Shown one piece after another: positions 21,013-56,669 of a stretch of DNA of 64,000 bases; the first letter of the stretch is position 1; each line of letters begins with the position of its first letter. Where the stretch lies: contig CAXXKM010000002.1 in assembly GCA_963664435.2 (NCBI GenBank), positions 800,001-864,000 of the forward strand, given 5' to 3'. This DNA comes from Longimicrobiales bacterium (GTDB lineage Bacteria > Gemmatimonadota > Gemmatimonadetes > Longimicrobiales > Gaopeijiaceae). The notes beneath the pieces are model-generated. The model saw nothing but the letters and a program-made list of their open reading frames with translations, did not search any database and was not told the origin of the DNA. The position numbers were made by a program, and so were the translations under genes.

Positions 21013-22150
21013 TCAGTTGGGCATCATCCGTCCCATGGCGGTCATCGGATCCAGCACCTCGTAGCTCCCCCCATCCTCATGGGGGCGCCTCCAAGGAAGA
21101 GCCTCGCTCCCAGGGACAGCACCCAGAACGACGAGTCTGCCCCGGGAAACTCGCCTCGCGGCAGATTGCCTCTTTCGGCGCGAACCCGGTGATACTGCAC
21201 TTCCAGTAAGGGGCGCAGACTCACTGGATCCGAGGTCAGCTGCCGGGCGTAGGCCGCCGTGGCGATGAGCCATCGCGTCGCGCCGGTCACGTGCGCGTCG
21301 TGATCGTAGCGGAAAAAAGTCGTCCGAGCCGGCCGGCCCCATCCGCGCATACTCGGGACGCGTCGCGGATTCCAGCCGCAGATAGGGCTGGTGACGGTTC
21401 GCGTCGTAGCGCATCTCCGCGAGGAGGCTCGTGTATCCGTCGGAGTCTTCGGGAACGCTGCGCGAGGCTTCGGCCAACCCGTAGAGCATCCCCGGGGCGG
21501 CCGGCCCGGAACGACGCAGCACCGCGTTCAGCAGCCTGGTGGTCTCCTCGTGGCCATGGTGTGACTCGGTGACGCGCGCGTGGGAGACGGAGGCTTCCCA
21601 CTCGGTGGCGGCACCGGCCCCCGATGTCCATCTCCGCGTCATCCGGCCCGACCAGGAGTCGGGGCAACCAGCGACAACCCTCCGCCGGCGATCTCCCAGA
21701 GGTTCCAGCTGAGCATCGCCTCGTGAAGGAGCGTGTGCGGATGCCGTTTGTCGATGAAGCCTTCTCCCCAACCGCCGTAGGTGAGCTCACCGCTTCCCAG
21801 GGTCACCCCCTCGAAGTTGAGCGTCGTGCGGAGGACAAGCCCGCGGGACGGGCTCTCCAGGTTCGCCATCAGGGCCGGCTGGGTCAGATACCACTCGGTG
21901 CGGCGAGCTCTCCGCCGTTCCCGTTGTCCGGGCCTCCGGTGGTGACCACGGGAAAGACCTGGCCCATCCCGACGACGTGCCAGTCGCCCAGCGGGAGCCG
22001 GAACATCCGGTGCTGCATCCGGTGTTGCGCTTCGGGCTCCATCGCGTGGTCCATCTGTTGCGCGGGCGCCTGCCGCGGGAGGAGGAGCAGGAAAAGGCCT
22101 GCTGACGTGACGACGGCGCGGGCGGTCGCCACGGGTCGGTGCATGTGCAT
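21013..22150 (-). pseudogene. Fragmented outer-membrane protein with Met/His-rich N-terminus (possibly metal-related)
   Basis: Signal + QQMDHAM; GWGEGFIDKRHPHTLLHE; several frameshifted pieces; pieces recur at 24640-24710, 28628-28680, 43134-43480. Confidence 0.6.
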
Positions 22151-30480: not shown

Positions 30481-30949
30481 TCGGGGATTTCCTGGCCTTT
30501 ACGGCAGACTGACGAAGGCGATTGACCCGCTTGATGGGAAGGAGAGTGGTCTTCATCGGCCTTGGTGACTCCTCCCCTCGCTGCGTGCTCGTAGCGTCGG
30601 TTGACGAACTGGAAGAATAGCATGGTGCCGCTGCGAGTGACCAGCAGATAGCGGATCTCGTTAACGATCAGGAGTCGCGCCGGTCGCATGCCCGTCGTGA
30701 TCGTAGACGAACATGGAGATGCCGCCCTGGGTGACCGATTCCGGGGTAACCTATGCTGGTGGCCGGGACGGGATAGCGCGCTTGTCCCAACCGCAGTTGG
30801 AGGTTGATGTGGTTCCCGATATCCTGCCTCGCGGCCGAAACCCTAACGTTACGGCATGCGGCATCATGTTTGTATCTTTCTGTGGTCGTTAGAGTTACAG
30901 GATTGTCAGGCCGGATTCCCGCTGTTTGACTCCCGCCGAATCGCGAACC

Positions 30950-32107
30950 TCAGCCGCGCGGTCTCGGGCGGGCTTCCAGTGCCTTCCGAAGCTGTCCCTC
31001 GTCGGCTCGCTGATAGCACTGAAGCACCGTCTTGGCGGTCTTCCAGCCTCCGAGGTCGCAGAGGACCTTGAGTGGCTGGTCCATGAGATCGCTCGCGAAC
31101 TTGCGCCTCAACGAGTGCCAGCCCCGCCCACGCTTGGGTTCGAGTCCCGCGAGCTTCTGGGCTCGGTTCCACCAGAAGCGCACCAGCGTCCGGCCCGCGC
31201 ACCGCGACGGATCTCGTGGTGCGGGGAGCACCGGAGCAACCTCGATCCCGGCGCTCCGCTCTCGCGCCTCCTCAAGGACGGCGACCGCCTCGGCCGTCAT
31301 CGGAGTCCGGTGTTCGTAGCCTGTCTTCTCGTGTTCGGCCCTCCACCGGATGGCTCGGGCTTCAAGGTCGATATCCGGCCACCTGAGGTGGCGGATAGCC
31401 CCGATTCGGTGCCCGGTCTCGTGTGCGAGCACGAGCGCGACGTGAAACCGCCAATCGACCTCCCGGGACACCCCGAGAAGCGCCTGGTATTCCTCTTCGG
31501 ACAACACCACCCGCGTGGGGTTCTTCTCCGTGGGCGTCTTCAGACCCTTCAGCGGGTTCGAGCCGAGGAGCAGCCGGCCCTCCTCGTCCTTCGACTTGGC
31601 GGCCCAGTTGAACACGGCGATCAGGAACTTCAGATCGTGTTCGATCGTCGCGTCGGACACCGGTTTGCCGCTCGCTCCGACCTTGCCCGCGCGCCGCGCC
31701 CGGATGAACCGGTCCCAGTCGCGCCGGGAGAGCGTTGAAGGCTTGCGGCCTCGTCCGAAGAACCCGAGGAACATCCTCGTCGCGGCCCGGTCGGCCCGCT
31801 GCGACGCCTCCGCCTTGGTGGGCGTCACCTCTTCACCGTAGATTTCAAACAGCTTGTCCAGCGTGAGCGGCTCGGGCTCGGACTCCGCCTTGCCGTCGGG
31901 CGCGTCGATGAACCCGGCGGCGAACTGATCCGCCTGCTTCTTCGCTCGGGTCCAGTCCCGGTGCCCGAGCGACCGGGTGAGCCTGCGACCGTTCTCGCGC
32001 CACTCAATCTGGAAGAGGCCGGTTTTCGGATCCGGAAAGACCCGGACCCGGTTCCGGCCCCACTCGCCGGCGCCGTAGCTCCGGCGGTTTCGTTTCGTGC
32101 GTGCCAT
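30950..32107 (-). CDS. Tyrosine recombinase/integrase (Int-1)
   Basis: HETGHRIGAI (catalytic R), HEKTG, WHSLRRKFA (HxxR), LGGW, LQCY (Y); N-terminal arm-binding-like domain. Confidence 0.93.
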   Translation of the reverse strand: MARTKRNRRSYGAGEWGRNRVRVFPDPKTGLFQIEWRENGRRLTRSLGHRDWTRAKKQADQFAAGFIDAPDGKAESEPEPLTLDKLFEIYGEEVTPTKAEASQRADRAATRMFLGFFGRGRKPSTLSRRDWDRFIRARRAGKVGASGKPVSDATIEHDLKFLIAVFNWAAKSKDEEGRLLLGSNPLKGLKTPTEKNPTRVVLSEEEYQALLGVSREVDWRFHVALVLAHETGHRIGAIRHLRWPDIDLEARAIRWRAEHEKTGYEHRTPMTAEAVAVLEEARERSAGIEVAPVLPAPRDPSRCAGRTLVRFWWNRAQKLAGLEPKRGRGWHSLRRKFASDLMDQPLKVLCDLGGWKTAKTVLQCYQRADEGQLRKALEARPRPRG

Positions 32108-32404
32108 CGTTCGATACCTCCGATTCGGCAGACTGAGAATGGCACGAATCACGGCGAGGAATCGTCTAACTACTTACAGGGCTGCACGATCTGCGCTTTC
32201 TGCCCTTGAAACGTGTCTCCTCCCGTCGTCCAGAAACGGCGGGTAAATCGCCTCGATTTGCGGGAATCGCATTCCGCCTCCGGCAGTGGCTGGGCGCAGG
32301 TTCGCGAAGCCGACTGCCGCGGTCAATCGTCATCTACTTCGCCCTCTGGACTGGACGTGATCGTCCGGTCTTCCTCTGTCCTTCAACCCCTTCGGATCGT
32401 GGAT

Positions 32405-33242
32405 TCAAGGAGATTCGGCTAGCGTGATCGCGTTTTGCATCGCCCACCCGCAGACCGTCCCCGTGAGCCGGGGGACCGGAGCAACGCCGCCGGCCGCATC
32501 ATCGAGCGATATCCGGCTCTCCAGCTTGTTGGCCAAGTCGCATCGTCCTCCGCGGTCGTCCAATGACCACGTCAACGTACCGGAGACATCCGCCTCGATC
32601 AGAATGCCCGCGTCGTAGGAAAGGGTGATCCGGATCGTTTGCGCCAAGCGGTCGCTGTCCATGAGGAAGGACACGTCGTCGTCGCTGAATACGCAGTCCC
32701 TCGCGGTCAGCGTGCCCTCCAACTCGGCGGACAGCGTACCCTCCGCCAGCGTCAGCATCGCATCCCCCGTGAAGGAGGCTCGGCTGCCATGCGCGCAGGG
32801 AATCTCGGCTCTCGCTGGTGACCGCCCCTTGGAAACCTTGAAGCTCGTATAGGGGCCAAGATGAAGGATCTCGCCGTGAGCCAGCAGGCGCCCGCCGTAC
32901 AGCCCCCGCACCAAGCTTCCAGCGCCGCCGAAGCCTTGGCCGCCGTGATGACATACGCGGCCGTGCCGTCCGCGACCAGCACGCCGTCCCCGTGAACTGA
33001 AGCAAACGGGCTTCGCCGGTCGTGCCCCGCAGGATACCGGCCCGCACGTCCCAGGTTAGTCCCTCGTAGGACGCGAACCGCTCCGCGTCCGCCGCGCGCA
33101 CCAGTAGACTGGCGGAAGGCGATGTGACCGGAGGTGAAGGCGACGGCCACTTCACCGGCCTCGTTAGGGTCCAGTGACGTTCGGAGACGTTCGGCTGGGT
33201 CGGAGACCCGTCAGGTCGCTCCGCCGGTGGCCTGGCGAACAC
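32405..33242 (-). pseudogene. Hypothetical protein split by a frameshift near 32915
   Basis: Two overlapping ORFs; Cys-containing beta-rich C-terminal part. Confidence 0.45.
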
Positions 33243-33423
33243 CCCCGTTGCTGATCACACGGGGCTTCCTCATCTCAGGATGGCGCGACGAGATTCGGCG
33301 CACATTCTGCTTTCTGAAGGCAGGCTGACACTGCCGTTGACAGAGACACGGTTCCTTGTATACTCCGACCGCTCGGGGAGAAAAACTCCCTGAGAGAACC
33401 TTCACAACCCAAAGGAGTTGCAC

Positions 33424-33636
33424 ATGTCTCAGGCCACATTCTCGTGGCGCGCCCGCCTGACCGCCATCGTTGCCGTCTTGGCGGTCTGCGTACTTCCGCT
33501 CGCGGCCCAAGAGATCGATGATTGCTTCCAAGATTGCCACGATCTGGGCATGCTCGCGTACGGCGACGATCAGGACTTGGACAAGGGTTCTGCGGTCTTC
33601 GAGGAGTGCATGGAGACCTTCTGCGGCGGCATGTAG
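33424..33636 (+). CDS. Small secreted acidic 4-Cys peptide
   Basis: RBS aaggag; signal peptide ..LAA-Q; CxxxC..CxxxxC. Confidence 0.75.
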   Translation: MSQATFSWRARLTAIVAVLAVCVLPLAAQEIDDCFQDCHDLGMLAYGDDQDLDKGSAVFEECMETFCGGM

Positions 33637-33647
33637 CCGCGCCCGCC

Positions 33648-34742
33648 GTGAGAACCTACAGATTGGCGGCGGTCGCTTTGGCGATCGCCGCCGCTGGCTG
33701 TTTGCGGGACCAGCCAGCGCCCTCCGAGGAGAGACTAGTCCCGGTTGCCTCCGCGCCTGTCCCGCTGAGTCGGGATAACGGTGTTGCCTTGACGTCGGCG
33801 CGGGAGGCGTGCGTGATCGACTCGTACAATTTCCGCGTTGTGTGCGTCACCCCTGACGAGCGCATCGGTGAGTTCGGAGGGAAGGGCGATGGCCCCGGCG
33901 AGTTCACTCGACCGGTTTGGCTCGGGAGAGTCGCGCTGGACCGCGTGGGCGTCGTTGACACTCGGCAGAATCGGCTAACGGTGTTCAAGACCGATGGCGA
34001 ATTGGTGTCGGACCTGTCGTTGCCTTCGTTGTTCTGGCCCCGGTCAGCCGGGCCGACCAGTCTTTTCGGCGAGGGCCTGCTCGGAGTGACTCCGGGAACC
34101 CAACCGGAAGAGGGAACGAGGCCGAGCGCTGAAACCGTGCTCGTAGAGGTGTCGCTTCAATCCGGCGAGGTACTTTGGCACCGGCGCGGTCTGGAAGAAA
34201 TCGCTACGACCGAATGCGGTAAGTTGGGGTCGGGGATACCAACGCCTAGCGGCGGCTACGTACTCAAGGCGTGCAAGCGGGAACTGGTGTTTCTGGAGGA
34301 TCGAGACGGCATGGCCGCCGCCGTGATTCAATCGCCGAATTACATGGTCGAGTTTCCAAACGAGCGCGACGTGGAGGCCTACCTTGAGGACATGGCCAGC
34401 ATGTTTGGCGGGTCCGCACCGGCATCGGCCATGGAGCCGCACGCAGCCGGATACCGAGAGGAGCCCAAGGCTTGGTTCCTGTTGGATGGACTGATCTTCG
34501 ACGACTTGGGCCGTTTATGGGTCGCCACGCATCGGGACCGCGACGCTTTTTCCTACTTCGACCTCTGGGTAGGCGTCGAGTATGCAGGGACGGTCCAGAT
34601 ACGTGACCGGCTGATCGGCTATGACATCCTGGGTTCGACCCTCGTCGCCTTGGTCGAGCGAACACCGGATCGAAACGGGATTGCTCAGCGGGCGATCGAC
34701 TGGTACGACATCGGCGCGGTCGAGGCCGGTCGTGAAGAGTAG
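33648..34742 (+). CDS. 6-bladed beta-propeller lipoprotein
   Basis: Lipobox AAGC; FGGKGDGPGEF; FDDLGRLWVAT. Confidence 0.8.
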   Translation: MRTYRLAAVALAIAAAGCLRDQPAPSEERLVPVASAPVPLSRDNGVALTSAREACVIDSYNFRVVCVTPDERIGEFGGKGDGPGEFTRPVWLGRVALDRVGVVDTRQNRLTVFKTDGELVSDLSLPSLFWPRSAGPTSLFGEGLLGVTPGTQPEEGTRPSAETVLVEVSLQSGEVLWHRRGLEEIATTECGKLGSGIPTPSGGYVLKACKRELVFLEDRDGMAAAVIQSPNYMVEFPNERDVEAYLEDMASMFGGSAPASAMEPHAAGYREEPKAWFLLDGLIFDDLGRLWVATHRDRDAFSYFDLWVGVEYAGTVQIRDRLIGYDILGSTLVALVERTPDRNGIAQRAIDWYDIGAVEAGREE

Positions 34743-34929
34743 GGTTCTTCACAAGCCGATGCCGATTCTCGTCCGGGGATCTTGAATTCGGCCAGTTTAT
34801 CCGCAACGCACAACACCCCACTCCAGCCCCGCAACCCTGAGCCCGTGTTAGAGTCAGGAGCAGCTTATTGGCCTCGCTGGGCTCGGCGGTTGTGGCTCAC
34901 CCGGATTCGCGTTTCCGCCGTGGTTCAAG

Positions 34930-35020
34930 CCGTGCTCTTCGACTCGATCATCGTGGTCACCGACCGCAAGATCCTGGACCGGCAGATCCGGAACACGATC
35001 AAGTAGTACGCGCAGGCCGA
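34930..35020 (+). pseudogene. Type I restriction HsdR fragment
   Basis: FDSIIVVTDRKILDRQIRNTIK*YAQ. Confidence 0.6.
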
Positions 35021-35769
35021 TACCTTGCGGGGGTGTTTTTCCGCCCCGTTGGCGACGACCGCCGTCGGCTACTCGACGTTATTGGACCTCCTCATACGTT
35101 ATCGACCAATAGGAGATTCCGGGCGGGTTGACTTGCTGGCGGGTGGCTACTCAGCGTTCACGGCATGGAGACGCGGAAGCACCGATTCAGCACGAGGGTA
35201 GGCACTTCCCTCGGGGACCCCGACGCGCCGTCCCCGACGGCCTCGGTGATGAAGTCCCCGAACGTCTCGAACCTCTGGATGGACGGTAAGCGGGACGGAC
35301 ATCAAGGCGCGATTGGCGGCGCGTGGCTGGACCCCGATGCTGCAACGCGTTGCCTCGGCGCGACGTGGGAAATGGCCTATTCCCCACCCACTTGCACGAC
35401 TTGCCGACTCCATGTTCGCCTTCATGCCATGGAGATTGAGAGGAGGCGGTTCGCGGCGGTCGAGGGGAGGGTTCGGGCCGGATGTCATCCCCACGACGGA
35501 CTTTCGCGCCGTCACGGCGCGGACGCCCGAGCCTGGCTGGCGGTCACTCGCCCGCGGGGACGCGAGAAGGCGCTGAAGCCCTTTGGCTGGCTGGATCGCC
35601 GGGACAGCACTGCCCGGCATCCGGGGAGCGCCCGAGTCTTGCGGCATCCATGCCCGGAACCCTTGCCCGGCGCGGGCGCGGTGAGCCCGTGGAGGACGCC
35701 GACGCGGCGGGTTGAACCGGACCGTTCACGGGCGCGGCCCACGGGCTCGTTGGACGCTGCTATTTCAGA

Positions 35770-35840
35770 CAAGCCAGCATACTCCTTGGGGCCACACTTC
35801 GCGTGTCCCCAGGAGAGGCTGGCGGGGGGCCTTGCCCCCT
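35770..35840 (-). other. ColE1-like oriT of IME-2
   Basis: Minus strand GGAGTATGCTGG^CTT after a hairpin; directly upstream of mobC. Confidence 0.75.
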
Positions 35841-35868
35841 GTGACCCCCGGACGGGCAACGGCGCGCC

Positions 35869-36207
35869 ATGAGCGCCCGACGCGCCGTTTGGGTGAAGGT
35901 TCGCGCCAGCGAGGCGGAGCGTGCCGAGTGGCACGCCAAGGCGCGTGCCGCGGGCCTCACGCTGTCGGATCTGGTGCGCCGGTCGGTGAGCCGGACGCGC
36001 ACATGGACCGTGGCGCACGCCGAGGTCGAGCGCGAGCGCGTCCAGCAAGTGGCGCGGATCGGGAACAACCTCAACCAGATCGCCCGCTGGGCGAACACCC
36101 ACCGGGGTGCCATCGAGGCGGTCGAGGTGATCGGCCACCTCGTCGCCATCAGGCGGGCGCTCGCGGCACTGTCCCCCGCCGAAGGTCCGGAGTCGGATGC
36201 TGATTAA
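35869..36207 (+). CDS. mobC: MobC/MbeC relaxosome accessory protein
   Basis: RHH-like N-terminus, ARIGNNLNQIARWAN. Confidence 0.92.
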   Translation: MSARRAVWVKVRASEAERAEWHAKARAAGLTLSDLVRRSVSRTRTWTVAHAEVERERVQQVARIGNNLNQIARWANTHRGAIEAVEVIGHLVAIRRALAALSPAEGPESDAD

Positions 36208-37798
36208 GTTCCTGGCGCACGGGACCGGATCGGCCGGCAAGGCGGCTGGCTACCTCCTCGGCGAGCTGGACGCCGCCGGGAAGCCGCGCGAGGGCGTCGA
36301 GGTCCTTCGGGGCGATCCGAACCAGGTGGCCGCCGTAGCCGACACGCTGGCGTTCGAGCACAGGTACACCTCCGGCGTGATCGCATGGGCGCCGGAGGAC
36401 GAACCGGCCGACGCCGAGATCGAGGCGGTCGTGGACGCCTTCGAGGACACGGCCTGGGCGGGACTGGAGCGCGACCGGTACGCCTGGACCGCCGTGCTGC
36501 ACCGCGAGCGCGGCGGCGGCGCGCACGTCCACGTCCTCGCCGCGCGGTGCGACCTGGAGACCGGCCGGAGCCTCAACATCGCCCGTCCGGGCTGGGAGAA
36601 GACCTTCGGCCCGCTCCGGGACGCCTTCAATTCCGAACACGGCTGGGCTCGCCCGGACGATCCCGCACGGGCCAGGGTGCAGCAACCCGGCCACCGCGCC
36701 TACATCGAAGCGACCCGACTGCGGGCCGGACTACGGCTCGAATCCTCCCCCCGCGACCTGATCCGGGACTACCTGCTCCAGCGCGTCGAGCACGGCACGG
36801 CGCGGAACCGGGCCGATATCGTCGCCGCCCTTCGGGAGGCGGGGCTCGAAGTGCCGCGCCAAGGCAAGGACTACCTCACCGCGCTGGACCCCGAGACCGG
36901 CGACCGGTGGCGGCTGAAAGGAGAACTGTATGGAGAGAACTTCGACCGCGAACGATTTGACCGAGCGGCTGCGGAGGAGGCTGGAGAGCGAGAGACGGGA
37001 GATCGAGGAGTTGACCGCGAGCGAGCTCGAAAGGCTCGGCGAGAACTCGCGGCGCGCCGCGAGGAACGCGCTGCGTTCCATCGAGCGCGATACGGAGGAG
37101 GCGGCCGGGAGGATGCGCCAGCTGCTGGTCAAGGCGTGGCAACGGCCCCTGATCGTAGGCCTGAGCCTTTGGATCGGTTTCTTCGGCGGAAGCTGGGCGA
37201 CGATGCAGTGGTTGTCGAGGAGCATCCAGGACCGGATCGAGACCCGCGCCGAACTGGGCCGGGCCATCGAGGACGCCCGGCGGACACTGGCCCAGCTGGA
37301 GGAGGACACCTGGGGGCTCGTGTTCCGCGAGATCAAGGGCGAGCGGTTCGTGGTGGTGCCGGACGAGGTGCTGGCCGATCCGCCCTGGTGGAAGGTGGAC
37401 GGACACCTTCCGGCGTTGAAGCTGTTGAGAGAGTGAGGGAGCTGTATGAGCGAGTTGGAACGGCAGTTGACGGAGGCCTTGAAGAGGCTCTCCGCGCAGT
37501 ACGCGACGGAGCAGCGGCGGCACTCCGGGCAGGTCGAAGGCTTGAGGCAGCACGTCGAAGCCTTGCGGCAGCGCGTCGAGCGGCAAAGCGAGGAGAACGA
37601 CGCCTTGCGGCAGCACGTCGAGCGGCAGAGCGGGGAGAGCGAAGCCTTGCGGAGGCGAATCGAGTGGCTGAACGAGGACGTTACACGCTTAACCGAGTCG
37701 TACGGCGCGCTCGCCGCAACCTTACGATGATGGTCACGGCGATGCGCCTGCGCGGGCTGGGGCGCGATCGCGATCGCGATTACGGTCCGAGCCGCTGA
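36197..37798 (+). CDS. mobA: ColE1-type (MbeA-like) relaxase
   Basis: MLIKF..GYLLG, VLRGDP, YTSGVI, HVHVL..DLETGRSLN, PDDPAR, RLKGELY. Confidence 0.9.
   Translation: MLIKFLAHGTGSAGKAAGYLLGELDAAGKPREGVEVLRGDPNQVAAVADTLAFEHRYTSGVIAWAPEDEPADAEIEAVVDAFEDTAWAGLERDRYAWTAVLHRERGGGAHVHVLAARCDLETGRSLNIARPGWEKTFGPLRDAFNSEHGWARPDDPARARVQQPGHRAYIEATRLRAGLRLESSPRDLIRDYLLQRVEHGTARNRADIVAALREAGLEVPRQGKDYLTALDPETGDRWRLKGELYGENFDRERFDRAAAEEAGERETGDRGVDRERARKARRELAARREERAAFHRARYGGGGREDAPAAGQGVATAPDRRPEPLDRFLRRKLGDDAVVVEEHPGPDRDPRRTGPGHRGRPADTGPAGGGHLGARVPRDQGRAVRGGAGRGAGRSALVEGGRTPSGVEAVERVRELYERVGTAVDGGLEEALRAVRDGAAAALRAGRRLEAARRSLAAARRAAKRGERRLAAARRAAERGERSLAEANRVAERGRYTLNRVVRRARRNLTMMVTAMRLRGLGRDRDRDYGPSR
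36930..37436 (+). CDS. mobB: MbeB-like mobilization protein (overprinted within relaxase)
   Basis: Coiled coil + TM + TWGL; conserved in the inverted copy 44904-45407. Confidence 0.75.
   Translation: MERTSTANDLTERLRRRLESERREIEELTASELERLGENSRRAARNALRSIERDTEEAAGRMRQLLVKAWQRPLIVGLSLWIGFFGGSWATMQWLSRSIQDRIETRAELGRAIEDARRTLAQLEEDTWGLVFREIKGERFVVVPDEVLADPPWWKVDGHLPALKLLRE
37446..37730 (+). CDS. mobD: MbeD-like protein (overprinted within relaxase)
   Basis: MSELERQLTEAL..L..Y..EQ resembles the MbeD N-terminus; conserved in copy 44616-44894. Confidence 0.75.
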   Translation: MSELERQLTEALKRLSAQYATEQRRHSGQVEGLRQHVEALRQRVERQSEENDALRQHVERQSGESEALRRRIEWLNEDVTRLTESYGALAATLR

Positions 37799-37884
37799 TG
37801 AGCGGGAAATCTGGCGCGGACGGCCTCCCGCAGCGAGCTTTGAGGCGCGCAGATCGTGCGGTCCATCGCGAGAGGAATCGAATG

Positions 37885-39099
37885 ATGGCACGCACGAAGC
37901 GGGACCGGCGCAGCTACAGCGCCGGCGAGTGGGGCCGGAACCGGGTGAGGGTGTTCGCCGATCCCAAGACCGGTCTCTACCAGATAGAGTGGCGAGAGAA
38001 CGGGCGAAGGCTCACCCGGTCCCTGAAACACCGGGACTGGTCGAGGGCCAAGCGTCAGGCGGACGAAGCCGCCGCAGGCCTCGCGATGTACGAGCTCAAC
38101 GGCAAAGCCGAAGCCGAATCCGAGCCGCTCACCCTGGAAGGGCTTTTTGAAATCTACGGTGAGGAGGTGGTCCCGACGAAGCACCGGCGGACCCAGCACC
38201 AGAACAGGGCCACGATGCGGATGTTTCTGGACTTCCTCGGCCGCGACCGAAGACCCGAGACGCTTTCCCGGCGCGACTGGGACCGGTTCATCCGGGAGCG
38301 GCGGGCAGGCAGGGTCGGACCCAGCGGCAGGCCCGCAGCCGACCGTACCATCGTGTGCGACCTGAAAGTCCTGCTCGCGATCCTAAACTGGGCCGCCAAG
38401 TCGAGAGATGAGCGGGGTCGGTTGCTGCTCGACTCCAACCCGCTGAGGGGACTCAGGGTGCCGAAGGTGAAGAACACCACCCGGGTCGTGCTCTCCGACG
38501 AGGAATACGAGGCGCTTCTGAGGGTCTCCGGACAGGTGGGTTGGCGCTTCCGTGTCGCCCTCGTGCTCGCGCACGAAACCGGGCACCGGATCGGAGCCAT
38601 CCGGAAGCTGAGGTGGACGGATATCGACCTCGAAGGCGGAGTCATCCGGTGGAGAGCCGAGCACGAGAAGACCGGATATGAGCACCGAACGCCCGTGACC
38701 GACGAGGCGACCTCCGCCTTGGAGGAGGCGCAGAGGCACGCTAGCGGGACCGGAGACGCCCCGGTTCTGCCCGCGCCGCGGGATCCGTCGACGTGCGTGA
38801 GCCGTACGCTGGTGGGCACTTGGTGGAAGACCGCCGAGAGGCGGGCGGGGTTGGAGCCCAAGCGCGGGAGAGGCTGGCACTCGCTCAGGCGGAAGTTCGC
38901 TTCAGACCTCATCGGGCTGCCCCTCAAGGTGCTTTGCGATCTCGGTGGCTGGAGGGAAGCCAAGACCGTCCTGCGCTGCTATCAGCACACCGACGACGTA
39001 CAACTCAGGACGGCTCTGGACAGCCGTCCCCGCAACGGTCGGCACCCGATCCAATCGGCGGGAACCGAACAGCGGGAATCGGATCACCGAATCCCGTAA
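37885..39099 (+). CDS. Tyrosine recombinase/integrase (Int-2)
   Basis: Same motifs as Int-1 (HETGHRIGAI, WHSLRRKF, LRCY). Confidence 0.93.
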   Translation: MARTKRDRRSYSAGEWGRNRVRVFADPKTGLYQIEWRENGRRLTRSLKHRDWSRAKRQADEAAAGLAMYELNGKAEAESEPLTLEGLFEIYGEEVVPTKHRRTQHQNRATMRMFLDFLGRDRRPETLSRRDWDRFIRERRAGRVGPSGRPAADRTIVCDLKVLLAILNWAAKSRDERGRLLLDSNPLRGLRVPKVKNTTRVVLSDEEYEALLRVSGQVGWRFRVALVLAHETGHRIGAIRKLRWTDIDLEGGVIRWRAEHEKTGYEHRTPVTDEATSALEEAQRHASGTGDAPVLPAPRDPSTCVSRTLVGTWWKTAERRAGLEPKRGRGWHSLRRKFASDLIGLPLKVLCDLGGWREAKTVLRCYQHTDDVQLRTALDSRPRNGRHPIQSAGTEQRESDHRIP

Positions 39100-39272
39100 G
39101 TGACGCGCCCGCAACAGAATCGGCAATCAAGGATTTCTGTCGATTCGATGGACTGCACGATCTGCGCGTTTGAAACCTCGCGCAGGGCACGCCCGTCGTC
39201 CAGAGTTGCGGCCCGGTCGGCTCTGGCGCGGGCGCGCCACGGGGGCGTTGGTTTCTGCGGTTTGTAGAGGAG

Positions 39273-39305
39273 CCAGATGGGTTAACGCTTCACGTTAACC
39301 TCTGG
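39273..39305 (-). other. oriT-like hairpin of IME-1
   Basis: CCAGA..GTTAACG-cttca-CGTTAAC..TCTGG; homolog of 56670-56702 with compensatory changes. Confidence 0.7.
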
Positions 39306-39372
39306 CCGGGGGAGCATCCCCCGGACCCCCGAACGACATTCCGCGCGCCACCCAAAGGAAAGGCCGCCCGTC

Positions 39373-39430
39373 ATGGTCCGTCCCCGGAAGCCCGAGGCCG
39401 AGCGCAGGACTCGCACGATCGGTGTGCGCG
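39373..39430 (+). pseudogene. Truncated mobC (IME-4 type)
   Basis: MVRPRKPEAERRTRTIGVR matches 56765-56822, then similarity ends. Confidence 0.8.
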
Positions 39431-39794
39431 AGGAGCAGCCTCCATGCGCTTGAGATCTTGACCTCTGATCGGCCGGGGTCGGTGGCGTACCGCGCGTGCA
39501 CATCGACATCGGGGGGCATGTGCACGGAATCACCGCGTCCATGTGCGCGGGCAGGGGCTCCGCATATCGCTGCCCGCGTTGCGGTTGTACCACGGCCGCA
39601 CGAACGGCGGTGCCGTTCCAGAGTGTGCGGCCGTGGCGGGAGCGACCCCGCCCTTCGGGTGCCTGGTACGGCACGGCGACGGCCGGGATGTGCACTTCCA
39701 TCCCAACCTCGCCCGGGGTCGCTCCCGATCCATCAGTCCTTGGCAGGAAGGCTAGTCGGTCACCGGAGACGGTCGCGGCCCGAAGCCGAAGGCG

Positions 39795-39985
39795 ACTGCG
39801 GTGGCCAACACCATCGGGCACGGCGACCACATCGAGATCCGGGGCTTCGGCACCTTCAAGGTGCGGCACCGCAAGGCCCGCACGGCCCGCAACCCGAGAA
39901 CCGGCGAACCGGTTCGGGTCCGGCCCGCGATGTGCCGGTCTTCAATCCGTCGAGGCACCTCCGCAGCCGGGTGGAGCGAGGCTCG
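39795..39985 (+). pseudogene. HU/IHF-family fragment
   Basis: IEIRGFGTFKVRHRKARTARNPRTGEPV..VPVFNPS; frameshifted, N-terminus missing. Confidence 0.85.
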
Positions 39986-40060
39986 GTCCATGTCGGCGAC
40001 GAGTCCGGGACGAAGCAAGGCGGGTGTTGGGGAGTGGCAGTGGTCGAAGAGGCGGCGGCG

Positions 40061-40078
40061 AGCTAAGCTAGCTTAGCT
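40061..40078. repeat. Perfect 18-bp palindrome AGCTAAGCTAGCTTAGCT
   Basis: Read directly. Confidence 0.85.
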
Positions 40079-40147
40079 TGATGGTGCCGGATGTGTGGAA
40101 AGCTGACCGTGCACTTGATCGTTCAATTTCGCTACGGGAGCGCTTCG

Positions 40148-40396
40148 ATGGCTGTAACACACTACGATGCGGGGAACGGACCCGTTTGCCAGTACAGGCA
40201 GAGCGCGAAGCAATGGAGCAAGGATGCCAGCAAGGTGAATTGCATCGACTGCCGCCGCCGATCGGGCTTCCCGCTCTTGGTTCATTGGATTTCGCCGCAG
40301 AGGAACATCGCTTGCGGCATGTGGTTCGTGAGGGAAGCGTTCGTGGACAGTGAGAAGCGCGCCGTCACCTGTCTTCGCTGCCGCAAGGCCATGTGA
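40148..40396 (+). CDS. Small protein with two H..C..CxxC zinc-finger-like repeats
   Basis: VNCIDC and VTCLRC; RBS gggag. Confidence 0.6.
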   Translation: MAVTHYDAGNGPVCQYRQSAKQWSKDASKVNCIDCRRRSGFPLLVHWISPQRNIACGMWFVREAFVDSEKRAVTCLRCRKAM

Positions 40397-40410
40397 AAGG
40401 AGAGCTCGAA

Positions 40411-40824
40411 ATGAGGAAGGGCAGGTTTGGACTCGGCGTCGCACTGGCGCTGGGGGTCGTGCCGTGGTTGGCGGGGTGCCAAGACGAAGAGGCGGCGGCA
40501 CGCCGCGGCTTCTTGCAGCAGTCCAGCGCGGCGCTCGCTCCATCTATCGATCCAGCGATCAGCGAAGCATTCTGGGACTGGCAATACTGTCGCATCATGG
40601 GTGAGCACTACTATGGGGATGCGATTCTCCAAGTGGCTGCTGATCCGGAATGGGCGGATCGGTACATGAGAGAGTTGCTCTCGAGGCAGATCCTGGAATC
40701 GGAGCTGGCTCTCTCGGGGCTTGTGGCTGAGGAGGCTCGACCTCATTGTCCTCTGAATGATGCTTTGGAAGCGAAGCTGGACTCGCTGCATGCTCTGATC
40801 GAAGCGAGACCTGATCAGCAGTAA
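40411..40824 (+). CDS. Hypothetical lipoprotein
   Basis: RBS aaggag; lipobox LAGC. Confidence 0.7.
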   Translation: MRKGRFGLGVALALGVVPWLAGCQDEEAAARRGFLQQSSAALAPSIDPAISEAFWDWQYCRIMGEHYYGDAILQVAADPEWADRYMRELLSRQILESELALSGLVAEEARPHCPLNDALEAKLDSLHALIEARPDQQ

Positions 40825-41164
40825 GCAACGTTGAACATCGCGGTCTGGCAAGGGGCGGCTCCGCCCCCCTTAGACCTCATGGGTTTCCGCGCCACTGTTC
40901 GGCGCGGTGGAGGGCGGGGGCCGCCTCCGGGAACCTCCGTCCGGTCCGCCCGGATCGCTGTCCGCCGACGGCCTGGCCGGACAAGAAGCGACCTTCCCCG
41001 ACCAGCGGGTCTCGCTCCGCCGGGTCGAGCGACTTGGGCCGGGCCGCTTGGTGGGCCCGTCGCGTTGCCGCCGGGACGACGCCGCGCGGCGGGCCGAAAC
41101 GCACTCGGGGCCGACCGCGGCCCGCGAACTCCGAGCGTCAGCGAGGGCGTTGTTTGGGGATCGA

Positions 41165-41243
41165 AGGGGCAAGCCCCTCGCCAGCCCCAAGTGTATTACT
41201 TTGGGTAGGCTGGCTTAACCACCTTAGCGTGGCTAAGCCAGCC
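41165..41243 (+). other. Orphan ColE1-like oriT with nic region duplicated as an inverted repeat
   Basis: GGCTGG^CTTAACCAC (41208-41222) / GTGGCTAAGCCAGCC (41229-41243). Confidence 0.7.
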
Positions 41244-41568
41244 CGGCGGTGCCGCCGGGAAACGCTCCTCCGGGCACCGCCCGGAAGAGTGCCCACCGGG
41301 CGAGCCCGGTGTCCTTCGGCGGCCTGCTTCGAGAGCCGTCCGCCAGCTGCTCCCTAAGCTGTTGTGGCAGCGGGTAGCGCGCTCGCGGATGTAGACCGCC
41401 CCGTTGGCCCGCGGCGGGAGAGGAGATCAGGCCGCATGGTCCTCCGTCGGGCGTGGAGGCCGACAGTCTGGAGACTCCCGCGAATCGAGGGGGCCGGACT
41501 TGCGCCCGCCAGACCCGCAACCGGACCGGCCAACGTCATGGCTGGGACAGCGGGCGGGTTACGGCCAT

Positions 41569-42039
41569 CTATCGGTACCAGTGAACGTTGAGGCTCAAGT
41601 CAACCCAAGCGATGGGAACCATCGGCTCAGAAAAGTCGCGATCCTCCGCTATCAGCATCGCCGGGTCCCACTCCACCCCCGTGTCGTACCACCACGCGCA
41701 CAGCGTGGTCACCATCGTACCGCGCACCAGCGCGTCGTTGCCCCGCAACCTACGGGCATACTCCGGACTGACCGCGATTCCCCGCACCACTGTTTCGCTC
41801 GAGAACAGTGCTCGGTCCATGTAAGGACCGGGGCGGGGGTTGCCGAACATCGACGGATCGCCGTCCTGTTTCCAGAACATTTCCGAGTCCGCCGCGCTGT
41901 CGTACGTCGATACCATGCCGCGGTTGCACGCCATGTTGCGCCACTCCCGGAGCGCGGGACTGCCGACCCTCAACTCCTGAGCCGCCGCGCCGCGCGCGAA
42001 CGCGAGCGCGGCCACGATGATTGCCAGTCTCACAGCCAT
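41569..42039 (-). CDS. Hypothetical secreted protein
   Basis: RBS ggagg; signal peptide ..AAA-Q. Confidence 0.7.
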   Translation of the reverse strand: MAVRLAIIVAALAFARGAAAQELRVGSPALREWRNMACNRGMVSTYDSAADSEMFWKQDGDPSMFGNPRPGPYMDRALFSSETVVRGIAVSPEYARRLRGNDALVRGTMVTTLCAWWYDTGVEWDPAMLIAEDRDFSEPMVPIAWVDLSLNVHWYR

Positions 42040-42059
42040 GCGAACCTCCCACGTCGATT

Positions 42060-42270
42060 CTGAGCGTGTCCCCCATGAAGTTGCACCGCGATCTCGGGAT
42101 ATCGCCGTCCGCCGCGTGGTTCCTCCTCCACCGCATCGGCGGAGGCCTCGCGGACGGGCGGATGACGTTCACCGGCCCCATCAAGGTAGATGAGAGGATT
42201 TCGGCGGGTTGCGCAAGAACATGCCGAAGCACAAGCGCGAGAAGCTAACCGGGCGGGGGCCGAACGTTGA
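42060..42270 (+). mobile_element. IS1595-family transposase remnant
   Basis: VSPMKLHRDLGIS..AAWFLLHRI..FTGPIKVDE..KNMPKHKR. Confidence 0.8.
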
Positions 42271-43479
42271 CGCTGCTCTTCGGCGCGCGCAGCTTGCGCT
42301 TCACGGCGCTCCGCCTCTTGCGCCTGGGCCTCGGAGTTCGGCAGCAGTGATCCGGTGTCTCGGGCATGTCCGAGCGTTCGCCAAGCGACGGAGGACCGAG
42401 ATTGCAAGTACCGAGACGGCCCCCCAGCCAATACATCCAATGCGTTCCGGTTTCGGGGCTGACATGGGCTCCTCCGGGGGGCGTGATGGTGCCGGGCCCG
42501 TCACCATCACCAAGACGGAGGAACCGGCAGAGGGCTGGACCTGCCCCGCTTTCACGGACAGTTGGTTCTTGGGGTTGATGGTGTCTGAGGTGGTTTGCCT
42601 CCCCCGCCGGAGAGGGGCGGCGGAAATCGGACCCTCGTTCGGATGACGGGTCTCCCGGCGTTCGAACGAGGGTGGGCAAGCGAAGCGCGGCAGCCCGCCG
42701 CCAGGTCGGCACGCGAGCCGGCCGCCACGAGATCACGGGTCCGCAGCACGCCGGGATGCGGGCACGAAGCCTATCGCGCAGGTGCGGGAACGTGGTGAGG
42801 ACGATCCAACGCGTCATTGCCACGGAGGCGGAGGGCGTGCACCTTCGCCTTGCAAAACCGTCGCAGCCTCGGCTGGCGGCGGTTCCCCCCGTCTTCCCAT
42901 CGGGAGCCAGTCCCGATGGGAAGACGGGGGTTATGTTCCTACTGGGCCTGATCAACGAGAATAGGACCGCCTCCGTGAGTGAGCCGATTCCCGCCAATCG
43001 AACCCGTTTTCCCGCTGTCGCGGCACGATCCAGCGGAGTCCAGTCCAACGGCAGAAAACGCAGATCGTGCAGTCCTGTATGACTTTACGTGATCTCTTGC
43101 CGGGATTCGGACCTCGTGTGCTCCGCCGTTACGTCAGGGTTGTCGCATTGTTGCCATCCAGGAACGGGCGCAGGCTCATCGGGTCCGAGCTCAGCTGCCG
43201 GGCGTAGGCCGCCGTGGCGATGAGCCATCGGGTCGCGCCGGTTGCGTACCCGTCGTGATCGTAGCGGAAGAAGTCGTCCGGGCCCGCCGGCCCCGAACGA
43301 CGCAGCGCCGCGTTAAGCAGCCTGGTGGTCTCCTCGTGGCCATGGTGTGACTCGGTCACGCGCGCGTGAGAGAAGGAGGCCTCCCACTCGGTGGCGCCAC
43401 CGGCTCCCGATGTCCATCTCCGCGTCATCCGGCCCGACTAGGAGTCGGGGAAGCCGGCGACAGCCCTCCTCCGGCGATC

Positions 43480-44434
43480 TCTCGGCCTTCTTCCACCAGT
43501 CCCGCGCCAGCGAGCGGCTCATGCACGCGAAGGAATCCTTCGGCGCGGCCAGCAGGGGCGCGTCCCCAATCCCGGGGTTGTGCCTCCGCGCTTCCTCCAA
43601 GGCTGCGAGCGCCTTGGAGGTGACCGGCGTCCGGTGCTCGTAACCGGTCTTCTCGTGCTCTCCCCGCCACCGGATGGTCCGGCCATCGAGGTCGATGTCG
43701 GCCCAACGAAGCTGCCGAATGGCACCGATTCGGTGCCCGGTCTCGTGGGCGAGCACCAAGGCCACTCGGAACCGCCAGTTCACCTGGGCGGACACTCCGA
43801 GCAACGCTTCATACTCTGTCTGGGTGAGCACCACCCGCCTCGGATTCTTCTCCTTTGGCAGCTTGAGGCCCCGGAGTGGGTTGGATTCGAGGAGGAGCCG
43901 TCCCTCCTCGTCCCTCGATTTCGCGGCCCAATTGAGAATCGCGAGTAGCAGCCTCAGATCGTATTCGATCGTCCGTTCGGACACGGGTCTGCGGCTACCG
44001 CCGGCCTTTCCCACGCGCCGCGCCCGGATGAAGCGGTCCCAGTCGCGTTGCGAAAGGGTCTCGGCCTTCCGGTGCCTCCCGAAGAACCGAAGGAACCTCC
44101 TCATCATGGCCCGGTCGTGGTTCTGCGACCGCCTGCTCTTCGTGGGGGTGACCTCTTCACCGTAGATTTCAAACAGCGTTTCCAGGGTGAGGGACACCGA
44201 CGCGGCTTTCGCCGTGTCCGTGGTCACGGGCTCGGCGAGTCCGGCGGCGATCTTATCCGCCTGCCGCTTGGCCCGGTTCCAGTTACGGTGTTTCAGCGAC
44301 CGGGTGAGCCTGCGTCCGTTCTCGCGCCACTCGACCTGGATGATGCCGGTTCTGGGATCGGTAAAGACCCGGACCCGATTCCGGCCCCATTCGCCAGCGC
44401 TGTACGAGCGCCGACTTCGTTTTGTGCGTGCCAT
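43480..44434 (-). pseudogene. Integrase Int-3, 3'-truncated (no HxxR or catalytic Tyr)
   Basis: Similarity ends at WWKKAER and reads into the OMP fragment. Confidence 0.88.
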
Positions 44435-47990: not shown

Positions 47991-50458
47991 TCATCGAGCG
48001 GAGGCGGTGGGCGCTCCGGCGATCGCGCGCAACCTTCCGCATTGCTCGATCAGCCATTCGGCGGCCTCCGGCCATTCGTCTTCGTCGTCACGCGTCCAGC
48101 GTCTTCGGACCGCGACTGACCAGCCTTTCACACTGTTTTGCTCCACATTGTCGTCGACATCCTGATCGGCCATCTGCTCGAAGATCATCCAGGAGTACTT
48201 CCGCATCCGAGCGGTTCTCTCGTGCGATGCCTTGCTTTCCCCGGATCGCACATAGAGCCAGAGCCTCTCTGGGTTTCCGACGTAGATCCCGATAACGTCA
48301 CCGTGCGAGTTGAAGGGATCGGTCCACTGCGTTGCCCCCCTCCACGTATCCTTTTGTCCGGGAACGCCGCCGAAACTCTTCTTGAGGAACCTCCAGAAGG
48401 CTTGTGTCCGACTCTTCTCCTCGAACTCGACTTCGACCGCCACGCCGCATCGCTCCCCCATCTTCCGGCAATGGTCGGCACTCGCGCGGTAGTCCTGACG
48501 GTACGGGTACAGCACGTAGTCCTCATGGCCGGGGACTGCGCGCATGGTCAGGGTTCCCGCCGTGGTCCCAGCCGGATAGCGCTTAGCCAAGTGAAGATTC
48601 GAGCTGATCGCTTCCCCTGACAGTCTCTCAGCGTTCTTCGGATCCAGGCTGAGTAGGGCTGCCGCTACGCTCAGCAACATTTGGCTCGCACTGCTTTCCT
48701 CATGCCAAGCCCCATCCCCAACACGCCACCTGAGGCTCGCCGACGCGACCTTCGTGCGGCTCGCGGACCCGGCCCCGTCCTGCCAGGGCCAGCGGGCCAA
48801 CGCCCGCCCCGCCAAGTCCGCAGCCCGCCGTTCAATCGCGGCCTCGTTCCAGTCGTCCTCGCCCGCGAGCCGTCTCGTCAGCCCGATCGAACTCCGGCGG
48901 TACACCCTGCGCTTGGCGTCGAACGTATCCGTGCCCATTTCGGAATTGGTGACATCGCCGCTCAGCGTCAAGTTGGGGAGCCGGTCCCGATACCGCCCGT
49001 GTACTTCCTCGGCATCGCCGCCCAACGCTTTCTTCCAGTCGTCAGTCAGCTTCTGCGGCATCACATGCTCGATCGTCAGATGGTCGCGGGCCGGTGCTTC
49101 CTCACGGTGCTCGGCCTCCATGAGCGCACACAGAACCGCGAACGACGACCGGGTGGCGCTGCCTCCGTAGGCCTTACGGCTCCGAAGTCCTTCCCGAACC
49201 TCCTCGTCGTTGGGTATCCCGACGCGCGTGTTCCGAAGCCTACGAATCCGATTTAGCCAGTACTCCGCAACGTCATCCCCAGCATCAGGTCCTGGTCCAT
49301 GGGCGAGGTCTACGATCGCCCTGTTCATCCCGGCGGTCGCCCGGTCCGCGAGCCACAAGCGGGTGGTCCACATCGCGATCCCCGAAAGGGTGGTTGCGAG
49401 GTCGTTCATCTGCGCTCCGGGAGCAGCGGGTTCGCCCGAGTCATTTAGGAGTCGCAACGTCAGCGGACGGTGAATGTCGATCCCCATCACGCGTAGGTGG
49501 CGGAGTTCTCGTTCGACTTTAGAGTTGGGGTGCGCGCCCGCCGTGCCGATCACGATGCCGTACAGCCCTGCGAGCCGGGCCAGATCACGGCACAGGGCCG
49601 GTCGCTCCACAGAAAGCTCCTTTCGCAATGCCCACCGGCGAAGGGCTTCGTAGACGTGATCGATGCCTTGAACCTTCCCCGTCCACCAGCGAAGGACATC
49701 CCGAAGGAAGATGTCGGTGGGCTCAGTTGTGTGCTCGGCGCCCAGACTTCGCTCGATCCGCTTCCAATGGTTGTCGTGGAGATCCTGTTGCTGCTCGTCC
49801 GGCAATCCCATGAGGAGCCAGTTCTTGACCTTCTCGCTCTCCGTGAGAGGTCGGCCGGTCGCATTCAGGCTCTCGAAGATCTGCTGCGGATCGTCGCCGC
49901 CAGCGAGCCCGATGCTCACCACCCGAAGCCGTTCGAGTCCCCTCAGTAGGCGGGCGACTTCGTTTCGCGCAACGAGGCGGCGGGCGACTCTCCAAGCCTG
50001 CGCTACCGCCCCGGCACCCGTTGGACGGCCATCAAGGCCGAGTCGATACTCTTCCTCGTCGCCGTTCTGAAGCCTCAGCTTGCGCAGTTTGTCCGGGCGC
50101 TTTCCAGGATTCGTGAGCCGATCATTGCGGATGATGGCTGCCGTCCAGTCCCCGCATTGGCCCTTGGGTCCGAGCTTTTCCGCTATGCACCCAGGAGGAT
50201 GCTCACGGTCGTCAGCCTCTGCTGACCATCCACGACACGGATGGTCTTGACCACGCCAGCGGCACCGGGATCCGGGAAGGTGAGCAGGTTCCCGGCGTAG
50301 TGTGTTGCGTCGGGGCCCGCGTCCGCGACGGTCAGGAGATCCTCTACCAGCCGCTCGATATCGGATTGGCCCCAGCGATATCGCCGCTGCCAGCGCGGCA
50401 CCACGTATTGGACCTGTCCGTTGAAGAGTTCCAAGAACTCGATTGGGTGGGCAAACAT
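47991..50458 (-). pseudogene. GmrSD-like DUF262-DUF1524 endonuclease with a single frameshift near 50190
   Basis: VPRWQRRYRW, VVDGQQRLTT, IFESLNATG, TIEHVMPQ..LPNLTL..NS. Confidence 0.85.
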
Positions 50459-50850
50459 GGACTCGCTTCCGTTCCTCACGATGGGTAGGGTGACCGATGG
50501 ACCAGCGTCCTATCGCCAAGAGTGGTCCGAAAGCTAGGGGCCACCGTAGGGACAGAGACGGGATGGCCGCCCAAGTATGACCTCTGCCGAAGTGGTGGGC
50601 AATCGCCGGTCGACGCCCCCTCGACATCCATGCTGCTCGCGGCGCCGCTGCCGTAGCGGCCTGCCCTCACCCTACGTCGAAACGCGGGATCAGCGGGCGG
50701 AGGGGGTGGCGGTTGGCAACAGGGTCGGTTCGTCCCAGGCCCTTGGCCCGGACACTAGATGGGATACCTTTAGCGTCGGCGTGAAGGCCGACGCAGTACA
50801 TGCTGACCTTTCAAGGACGGAGGCCGACGCGCGTCGGCACGGAGAACACA

Positions 50851-51477
50851 ATGGAGTCGTGTTTCATCTACTGGGACAATTCGAACATCTTCCACGAAGC
50901 TCAGCGGCTTGCCGAGGAGCGAGCCGAAGGTCCGGGCGCACGCTATCGGGTGCGAGTCCACTTTGACAGCCTGCTAGTACTCGCGAACGCAGGCCGGCCC
51001 GTCGAGCGGGCGTTCGCCGTCGGGTCGATTCCGCCCGAATTGCGTCAGCTCTGGAACCGAATGGAGGCCAACGATATCGAGGTGAAGTTGTTTGACCGGG
51101 GTGATCCGCACCGTGGTGAGCAGGACGTTCCGGACCGTCTTCTCCAACTGCGGATGCTCGAAGATGCGCTGGACTACAACGGCGATCCCGGAATTGCCGT
51201 ACTCCTCAGCGGCGATGGGGCTGGCTATCTCGAAGGTGCGGGTTTCCACCGGACGCTTGAGCGCATGCACAGCAGAGGGTGGCGTATCGAGATTCTGTCT
51301 TGGGCTCATTCCTGCAACCAGCGTATGCGGCGCTGGGCAGAGGAGCACGGAGTCTTCGTTGCGCTCGACGATTTCTACGAAGAGATCACCTTCATGGAGC
51401 CATCGAGTCCGGGCCACGAATTCGCTCTCCCAAGATCCCAAGCGCCACTCGACCTGTCCCGCCGTCCAATCTCCTAA
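50851..51477 (+). CDS. NYN (PIN-like) domain protein
   Basis: IYWDNSNI, EQDVPD, LLSGDG, GWRIEILSW. Confidence 0.88.
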   Translation: MESCFIYWDNSNIFHEAQRLAEERAEGPGARYRVRVHFDSLLVLANAGRPVERAFAVGSIPPELRQLWNRMEANDIEVKLFDRGDPHRGEQDVPDRLLQLRMLEDALDYNGDPGIAVLLSGDGAGYLEGAGFHRTLERMHSRGWRIEILSWAHSCNQRMRRWAEEHGVFVALDDFYEEITFMEPSSPGHEFALPRSQAPLDLSRRPIS

Positions 51478-51656
51478 CGCGAATGTTCTGCGGACTGGTC
51501 CGTCCACTCGCAGCGGCGCTCGAACCGCCTTCCCAACAGGGAATTTCTGGACGGGGAGTATCCATGTCAAGCGGATGCCCGATTTTCTTGGAGCGACGTG
51601 TCTCGCAGCGCCCCTCGCGATGCTTCCGTTGCGGTGCCCGTTCTTGCCCGGCTCGA

Positions 51657-52658: not shown

Positions 52659-52669
52659 GTGCTTTCCCT

Positions 52670-52890
52670 TTCTCCTGTGCTTGTCGTGCGAGCCTCGATG
52701 CTCAAGTATCCATTCAGGACGTGGGAAAGACGGTGGCGACCAAACTCCCGTACGGCCCTTGCGGCCAGCGACCCGACGGCCCGACCACCGTCTGTGCTGG
52801 ATGCCCGCTCCGGCTCGCTCCGCTCGCCTCTGCGGGCATCCAGCACACCGGGCCATCCCCGTGACCCGGACCTGCAAATCAAGCAGGGAT
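52670..52890 (-). ncRNA. IS110 bridge RNA (5' hairpin, target-binding loop, donor-binding loop); ends approximate
   Basis: Guides at 52767-52775, 52745-52751, 52705-52713 and 52680-52685 inside stems. Confidence 0.82.
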
Positions 52891-53080
52891 CTCCAAGAAT
52901 GGAAGAGACAAGCGACCCGGGGCGGAGCGTGTCGGGATGTGTGCATCCCAACCTCTAGCCAGGCTCGAGCTGGACCCTCTCTGCCTCGGTCGGGGCCTTG
53001 GCAAGCCGGGGTGTGCGAGCACTAATCACGCCCGTGGATCCGCCACACGCGGCCGATGGACCGACAAGGAGGCTGTCGGA

Positions 53081-55272: not shown

Positions 55273-55362
55273 GCACTTTGAGTCACATATCGTTGTGAGC
55301 GTGTAGCTTACGGGATTCGGGGGTCAGATTCCCGCTGATTGACTCCCGCCGATTGGTTTGGG

Positions 55363-56523: not shown

Positions 56524-56669
56524 CGTTCGATACCTCCGATTCGATGGACTGCACGATCTGCGCGTTTGAAACCTCGCGCAGGGCTCGTCCGTCGTCCAGA
56601 GTTGGCGGTCCGGCCGGCTCTGGCGCGGGCGCGCCACGGGGGCGCTGGTTTCTGCGGTGTGTGGAGGAG

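Follow-up and report, generated by a model that had tools for sequence, protein, structure and literature searches.

Two nested elements in the window

A 64-kb stretch of DNA from a Longimicrobiales bacterium (hereinafter the window, that is, the whole stretch of 64,000 nucleotides that was analysed; the genome that carries it is denoted G000) contains two related mobile elements, one nested within the other. The inner element, IME-2 (for integrative mobilizable element, IME; 32121..39147, plus strand), consists of 7027 bases, both 7-bp cores included, and lies in inverted orientation inside the host element, IME-1 (30847..43133, minus strand), which itself occupies a palindromic target and has CGTAACG cores at 30847-30853 and at 43127-43133. 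The insertion falls in the leader of the IME-1 integrase gene, int-1 (30950..32107, minus strand; 385 aa, intact): the left overlap CGATTCG (32121..32127, plus strand) shares one base with the int-1 ribosome-binding site (RBS; GGAGG, 32117-32121), which is left in place together with the start codon, and the sequence reads CGATTCG again at the right overlap (39141..39147, plus strand). An earlier note on this DNA had proposed these boundaries, an insertion 13 bp upstream of the int-1 ATG (32107, minus strand) and the identity of the joined flanks to the uninterrupted leader of another integrase gene, int-4 (55363-56523, minus strand). All of this holds: when IME-2 with one core is deleted in silico, the remaining sequence equals the int-4 leader (56521-56570) letter for letter, including an empty target at 56537..56543 (plus strand). 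The leaders of two further integrase genes, int-2 and int-3, differ from this one as the note described (cctctcgYgatggac). The CGATTCG 7-mer alone is weak evidence of a boundary, with 1039 copies in G000; independent evidence comes from the family-wide left-end and right-end motifs, which bracket precisely the IME-2 cores.

The left end of IME-2 contains, next to the core, the half-site GCAGACTG (32128..32135, plus strand), which differs from the target half-site ATGGACTG by transitions only and is a probable core-binding site. It is followed by a box shared across the family, CTGCACGATCTG (32182..32193, plus strand; 54 bp inside the core and 74 nt from the int-1 ATG), and, 41 nt from the box, by an exact 13-bp copy of an upstream leader motif (TCTGGACGACGGG; 32222..32234, minus strand). 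The cargo comprises a predicted open reading frame (ORF) of 247 aa without a family match (32499..33242, minus strand) and an ORF of 406 aa (33522..34742, plus strand) that encodes a probable beta-propeller (NHL-like match, E 3e-6, below the cut-off; Atlas score 0.85, a lead only). The mobilization module encodes a mobC/NikA-like accessory protein (35869..36207, plus strand; Pfam PF21983 and PF05713 above the cut-off) and a MobA/VirD2-like relaxase, distantly similar to MbeA of ColE1 (36197..37798, plus strand; PF03432, E 1e-4, and NF047848, E 8e-24, both below the cut-off). The integrase gene of IME-2, int-2 (37885..39099, plus strand; start assigned by alignment with siblings), encodes a tyrosine recombinase of 404 aa with intact catalytic motifs and a PF00589 match above the cut-off, and is preceded by its own leader with the box, a short T..G-class spacer and an RBS (37850..37884, plus strand) that matches no core used by the Int-2 clade described below. 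The predicted structure of Int-2 is mediocre (pLDDT 62), with generic tyrosine recombinases as the fold matches, and the N-terminus of the model consists of three strands plus a helix, which we take to fit an arm-binding domain. Near the right core, GCGGGAA occurs twice in direct repeats (39058..39080, plus strand) that are found family-wide and are probable arm-type sites.

By its sequence, IME-2 is an IME: it combines a site-specific recombinase and flanking direct repeats, the 7-bp cores, with mobilization genes of its own (mobC matches above and relaxase matches below the cut-off), and neither a mating-pair system nor any type IV secretion system (T4SS) family was found on the element. The families PF03135 (VirB4) and PF02534 (coupling protein) were not found in the genome G000, which is 96% complete. 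Movement as a unit between sites is indicated, indirectly, by a copy in another genus (G206:C2) that is identical to 32121-39147 in 7026 of 7027 bases, the one difference lying within the left core. Because this copy occupies a different site, the ends of IME-2 are fixed, and it follows that the element has recently moved as a unit and that one mismatch is tolerated. What this site has in common with the leader is limited to the left flank ACCTC and six of the seven core bases; the box is absent. The mismatch in another genome, G225, has the same polarity, its left core being a common leader spacer (10/165) and its right core not being found among leaders; two of the six elements with both ends have mismatched cores, with at most one mismatch.

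Contigs from four sequencing runs were examined for joints that would reflect excision. None of the joints listed (15 of 27) is the attP joint of a circular IME-2. The restored-leader joint 32120-39141, present in all four runs, is not evidence of excision because it is identical to, and therefore indistinguishable from, empty sibling leaders. Another joint, at 30851-43157, departs from the ends of IME-1 and may stem from a paralogous repeat. Relative to the flank, the cargo has a depth of 4-8x in X1 and X4, and in X6 the two depths are equal; these values are not copy numbers, and no contig piece among those listed covers the whole window.

Insertion sites of the Int-2 lineage

Relatives of Int-2 were gathered by element-side queries only (protein, right-end pattern and left-end pattern), and 21 further close proteins without genomic context were left out of the counts. 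In a tree of 20 integrases, 11 form the Int-2 clade (support 96/96), with both ends seen for six elements and one end for four. Eight of the 11 lie inside a sibling integrase leader at the identical position (G000, G206:C1, G333, L095, G011, G225, G188:C29 and G189), 12-13 bp upstream of the int start codon; the overlap is followed immediately by ATGGAC and the family box, and the orientation is always opposite to that of the host int. A ninth locus at this position (L103), with the left end only, has the identical left junction; its integrase was not seen. In G206:C1 (824276-842283), the nesting is triple: a third sibling carries, in its mobC, an element whose leader is occupied by the Int-2 element. 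When the search is anchored on the target instead, the junction pattern recovers six junctions from 215 genomes, all of the Int-2 clade. No further Int-2 was found among 40 relatives of G333, and a match to the leader target in G110 was rejected as unrelated sequence.

Leaders are a small target: there are 27 such sites in 4.5 Mb, 9 of the 91 loose half-sites in G000 are leaders, and only 2 of 5000 random G000 60-mers are classed as leader. Exact empty targets are found in 23 of 165 leaders, so that occupation is far below saturation. The earlier note had regarded unrelated random sites of Int-2-type elements as the sign of a chance insertion; the tabulated sites, with 8/11 in leaders, 1/11 off target (the copy in G206:C2) and 2/11 at other sites, do not have this appearance. 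The comparison of these loci thus supports the conclusion that Int-2 elements target sibling integrase leaders. The two at other sites (G228 and G000 C2:465137) have a changed right end and together make up a subclade that is nested among leader-targeting members (2 changes, 85/85), which indicates that specificity within the clade has switched at least once.

The earlier note proposed that the element avoids self-insertion. In those own leaders of the Int-2 clade that were seen, the overlap begins with T, whereas every core used begins with C. Evolved self-immunity is not supported because T..G, the class of the int-2 leader itself, is the majority leader class (94/165, 57%) and the members of the clade are kin.

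Two observations on leaders in other genomes stand apart from these counts. The box is missing from the leader upstream of int at L006 (G009:C2), where its place, a few bases upstream of the Int-2 site, is taken by a different, AT-rich sequence. At L151 (G220:C1, 731323 and 731477), a tandem duplication of 154 bp carries two copies of the leader target.

The host leader and the effect of nesting

Two motifs are conserved in native leaders of the family: the box and, 38-41 nt upstream of it in most of 157 leaders, CTGG. The insertion of IME-2 moves both of these motifs of int-1 7 kb away, to the displaced leader (39148..39204, minus strand), which consists of the half-site ATGGACTG, the box at 39153-39164 and the upstream motif at 39192-39204. 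Read outward, however, the left end of IME-2 presents a near-identical box and an exact 13-bp match to the upstream motif; the two are 41 nt apart, versus 40 nt natively. A match of 10-13 bases to this motif occurs in 9 of 10 left ends of the IME-2 lineage, including 6/6 of those inserted in leaders; other left ends match at most 7 bases (0/58 at 8 or more), and none of 20000 shuffles reached 12. The earlier claim that the insertion parts int-1 from its box, oriT and mobC stands for the displaced box at 39153 but needs qualification otherwise, given that a near-identical box at 32182 takes its place, the RBS stays, the IME-1 oriT is putative and its mobC is a remnant of 26 codons (39373..39453, plus strand), the first 19 of which match mobC of the int-4 element. 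With both leader motifs at its left end, IME-2 may replace the control region that it displaces.

We consider IME-2 to be an active IME of an integrase lineage that prefers sibling integrase leaders as attB, and IME-2 and IME-1 to be a hitchhiker and its host rather than a lock and its captive, with a probability of roughly 0.6. Under this interpretation, Int-2 would read the leader half-site through its likeness to the half-site of the element itself, possibly aided by the adjacent box, which would be an integrase arm or operator site. IME-2 would excise as a circle and be moved by its own relaxase together with a conjugative helper acting in trans. Where a genome contains tens of siblings, the leader would provide a multi-copy landing pad at which no chromosomal gene is harmed, and the copied motifs would keep the host integrase at least partly expressible. 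IME-1, for which no relaxase match was found, would in turn gain a mobilization module. For the host, the probable outcome is replacement or neutral hitchhiking, and IME-2 resembles a specialist that rides on its relatives more than a demonstrated off-switch.

Several observations weigh against this interpretation. The left-end lineage of IME-2 is also found at non-leader sites; among these are L101 and L102, in genomes where no Int-2-like integrase was found (the best have 73% and 77% identity) and which were left out of the clade count. The inner branches of the tree of flanks are mostly weakly supported and the family is recombinant, and all the genomes compared are metagenome assemblies. 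The 13-bp match was found post hoc, represents one lineage event and could be a neutral conversion tract. A shared motif, GTTTCAA, is 7 nt off its native spacing in the left end of IME-2, so that the promoter may not be rebuilt. Finally, two of the five evaluable host integrases are broken (a nonsense codon in G333 and a split gene in G011), against a background in G000 of 10/32 int matches that are partial or shifted.

The last two observations would also favour the view, put forward in the earlier note, that IME-2 locks IME-1: the insertion would leave the int-1 promoter 7 kb away and silence int-1, IME-1 could excise only after IME-2 had left, and IME-2 would gain a stable site or suppress a competitor. 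It is in keeping with this view that the insertion falls between the RBS and all the conserved upstream motifs, and that the distance from box to ATG grows from 25 nt in the native int-4 leader to 74 nt. No sigma-70 match was found in promoter scans at either end of IME-2, but none was found in the native leader either. On the other side, both leader motifs are re-supplied by the left end of IME-2, the int-1 RBS is intact, the host integrase is intact in three of the five cases, three of the 11 clade members reside outside leaders, and G000 encodes two further intact Int-1 paralogues with 97% identity, box-bearing leaders and the same core as IME-1, which could complement int-1 in trans. A strict lock is unlikely on this evidence, and replacement of the control region is the better reading of the sequence.

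The recurrence of the same position could, alternatively, reflect one or two ancient insertions that were inherited as a composite, with the host integrases and cargo swapped later by recombination in the conserved 5' end of int and no ongoing targeting. Such a history might be suspected from the right-end CGATTCG common to six leader insertions, the four left junctions with the same host leader and the mosaicism of int-1 itself, which is 97% identical to integrases with another leader. It is, however, hard to reconcile with the three overlap types used in leaders (CGATTCG, CCGATTG and CTCGATG/CGCGATG, always C..G, with varying left flanks), or with host integrases of several leader types, which themselves have different targets (the four of sufficient length for comparison are 76-93% identical to each other). 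The occupied flanks do not form one clade either: among 31 flanks, each of the four occupied type-B leaders is nearest to an empty one, and monophyly is rejected (p-AU 0.025). Furthermore, the near-identical copy in another genus has moved alone to another site, and the mismatched ends in G225 point to a fresh event; an inherited composite is accordingly quite improbable. That a low-specificity element inserted by chance, or that repeats were misassembled, is largely refuted and can be given hardly any weight. One off-target copy exists, the overlap is not fixed, and some 30 similar repeats per genome hamper assembly, but the position is identical in nine loci, the leaders are a tiny fraction of the genome, and for most right ends in G000 there is a matching left end with the same core (see below).

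Family-wide nesting and relation to known systems

The family of these elements is greatly expanded across the genus, with matches in 17 of 18 related genomes and up to the 45 candidates scored. The named records with an IME-2-type element end are titled Longimicrobiales or Gemmatimonadota, and the sequencing runs that contain the window include sponge metagenomes. Among viral contigs, only two distant relatives (26-30%) were found. In G000, there are 32 tblastn matches to int-1, and common motifs mark 45 left and 26 right ends; for 17 of the 26 right ends, those of IME-2 and IME-1 among them, a left end with the same 7-bp core lies within 60 kb. The excess of left over right ends and the lack of any T4SS family found are features of this genome.

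Nesting extends beyond the Int-2 lineage. Among 151 non-redundant right ends, which are a subset of the matches, 26 are located in a sibling backbone (12 in int coding sequence, 6 in the leader or oriT region, 5 in the relaxase and 3 in mobC), versus 60 of 5000 random G000 60-mers; the sample had been deliberately enriched for Int-2, and without its six rows the count is 21/145. The 135 integrases fall into 45 clusters, with separate clusters targeting int codons near 47 and 55, mobC and the relaxase. Leaders are hypervariable in the spacer that separates box and RBS, with 72 variants in 177 leaders and 34 overlap 7-mers in 165 leaders; drift, footprints or escape might each account for this, and the CGAATCG leaders might be scars. 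A bolder and rather doubtful extension is that Int-2 elements are regulatory hijackers, which would home on the integrase-bound operator of their siblings and swap in a counterfeit control region at the left end, so that the host int and excision would be driven or timed by the guest; on this view, siblings would be engaged in an arms race, in which the leader spacer would serve as a zone of escape or of footprints and several clades would prey on int, mobC, relaxase and oriT regions.

Further nestings in G000 were observed at codons 55-58 of a sibling int with the cores CGAAGCG and CGAAGAA (C2:129282-112749 in C2:141207-111655; C1:1572352; C2:1091599), and 3' ends of tRNA genes are targets of some clusters of the family (C3:1132032, 1153554, 1202411, 42362 and 80457). 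At L100 (6896-7012), two left ends are joined back to back at a single CGTAACG core. All 24 rows of the Int-1 cluster have as their target a palindrome of about 23 bp, in one orientation or the other (12 CGTAACG and 12 CGTTACG), with 16 pattern matches in G000; several copies of this target are unoccupied. Elsewhere in the window, int-3 (43478-44434) is truncated after codon 319 and continues into a sequence repeated at 21492-21695, defence-type cargo is found near int-4 (47991-63540; GmrSD, MmeI-like fragments and an SNF2 helicase with NOV_C), and an ORF at 15017-15985 has a Tle1-like phospholipase catalytic domain.

From its sequence features, IME-2 is comparable to several known systems and is a member of none of them. 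The IME_oriT elements of streptococci are described as tyrosine-integrase IMEs with their own relaxase that integrate in a conserved functional site of an integrative and conjugative element (ICE) or an IME, forming matryoshka structures, and also use secondary sites; the authors of that study observed that the IME moved on its own and did not reduce transfer of the host (PMC7563843, PMC5704250). IME-2 likewise targets a conserved functional site of another element, has its own relaxase and uses secondary sites. However, IME_oriT, as described there, targets the nic site of oriT, mostly in unrelated ICEs, and employs a MobT/Rep-Trans relaxase, whereas IME-2 targets the integrase leader of an IME of the same family (72-78% Int identity), has a MobA/VirD2-like relaxase, with matches to PF03432 and MbeA and none to Rep_trans, and its incoming end copies the displaced leader motifs. 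In helper-embedded phage-inducible chromosomal islands (PICIs), one integrase clade is described as repeatedly targeting genes of another element, with a cis-regulatory link (PMC10111431). In this model, which is the published one behind the lock idea, the interrupted host function waits for excision. These PICIs are phage satellites that insert in late genes of prophages, co-oriented, and are packaged in virions, whereas IME-2 has no phage genes and is inverted, and its target is non-coding, with the coding sequence and RBS intact; the PICI gene set (alpA, primase) was not found, only the integrase matching PHROGs among the eight proteins scanned.

The res-site hunters of the Tn5053/Tn402 group insert beside the recombinase gene of another element, at a recombinase-bound control site, in fixed orientation and with occasional off-target events (PMC7765201). 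In the Int-2 elements, the box adjoins all leader targets, and the off-target site is without it. According to the same source, the hunters use Tni transposition, generate 5-bp duplications, depend on the resolvase of the target, and belong to families unrelated to those of their hosts; IME-2 employs a tyrosine recombinase with a 7-bp overlap, and no Tni family match was found in the element. Tn916 and CTnDOT, self-conjugative ICEs with mismatch-tolerant tyrosine integrases (IntDOT in the latter), accept non-identical overlaps, with AT-rich, low-specificity sites in the case of Tn916 (PMC5812530). The Int-2 elements similarly tolerate overlap mismatch, but their position is fixed and there is at most one mismatch. 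A lineage that targets the integrase leader of its own family, with built-in replacement of motifs, was not found described in the open-licence papers searched, and neither was this family of elements.

Nested elements of this kind offer a compact test of what nesting does to the host element, that is, whether it silences it, rewires it or does nothing. With its roughly 45 integrase clusters and their matched 7-bp cores, the family is also a natural library in which target change and mismatch tolerance of tyrosine recombinases can be analysed, and it points to heavy recent traffic of elements between genera of sponge-associated Gemmatimonadota.

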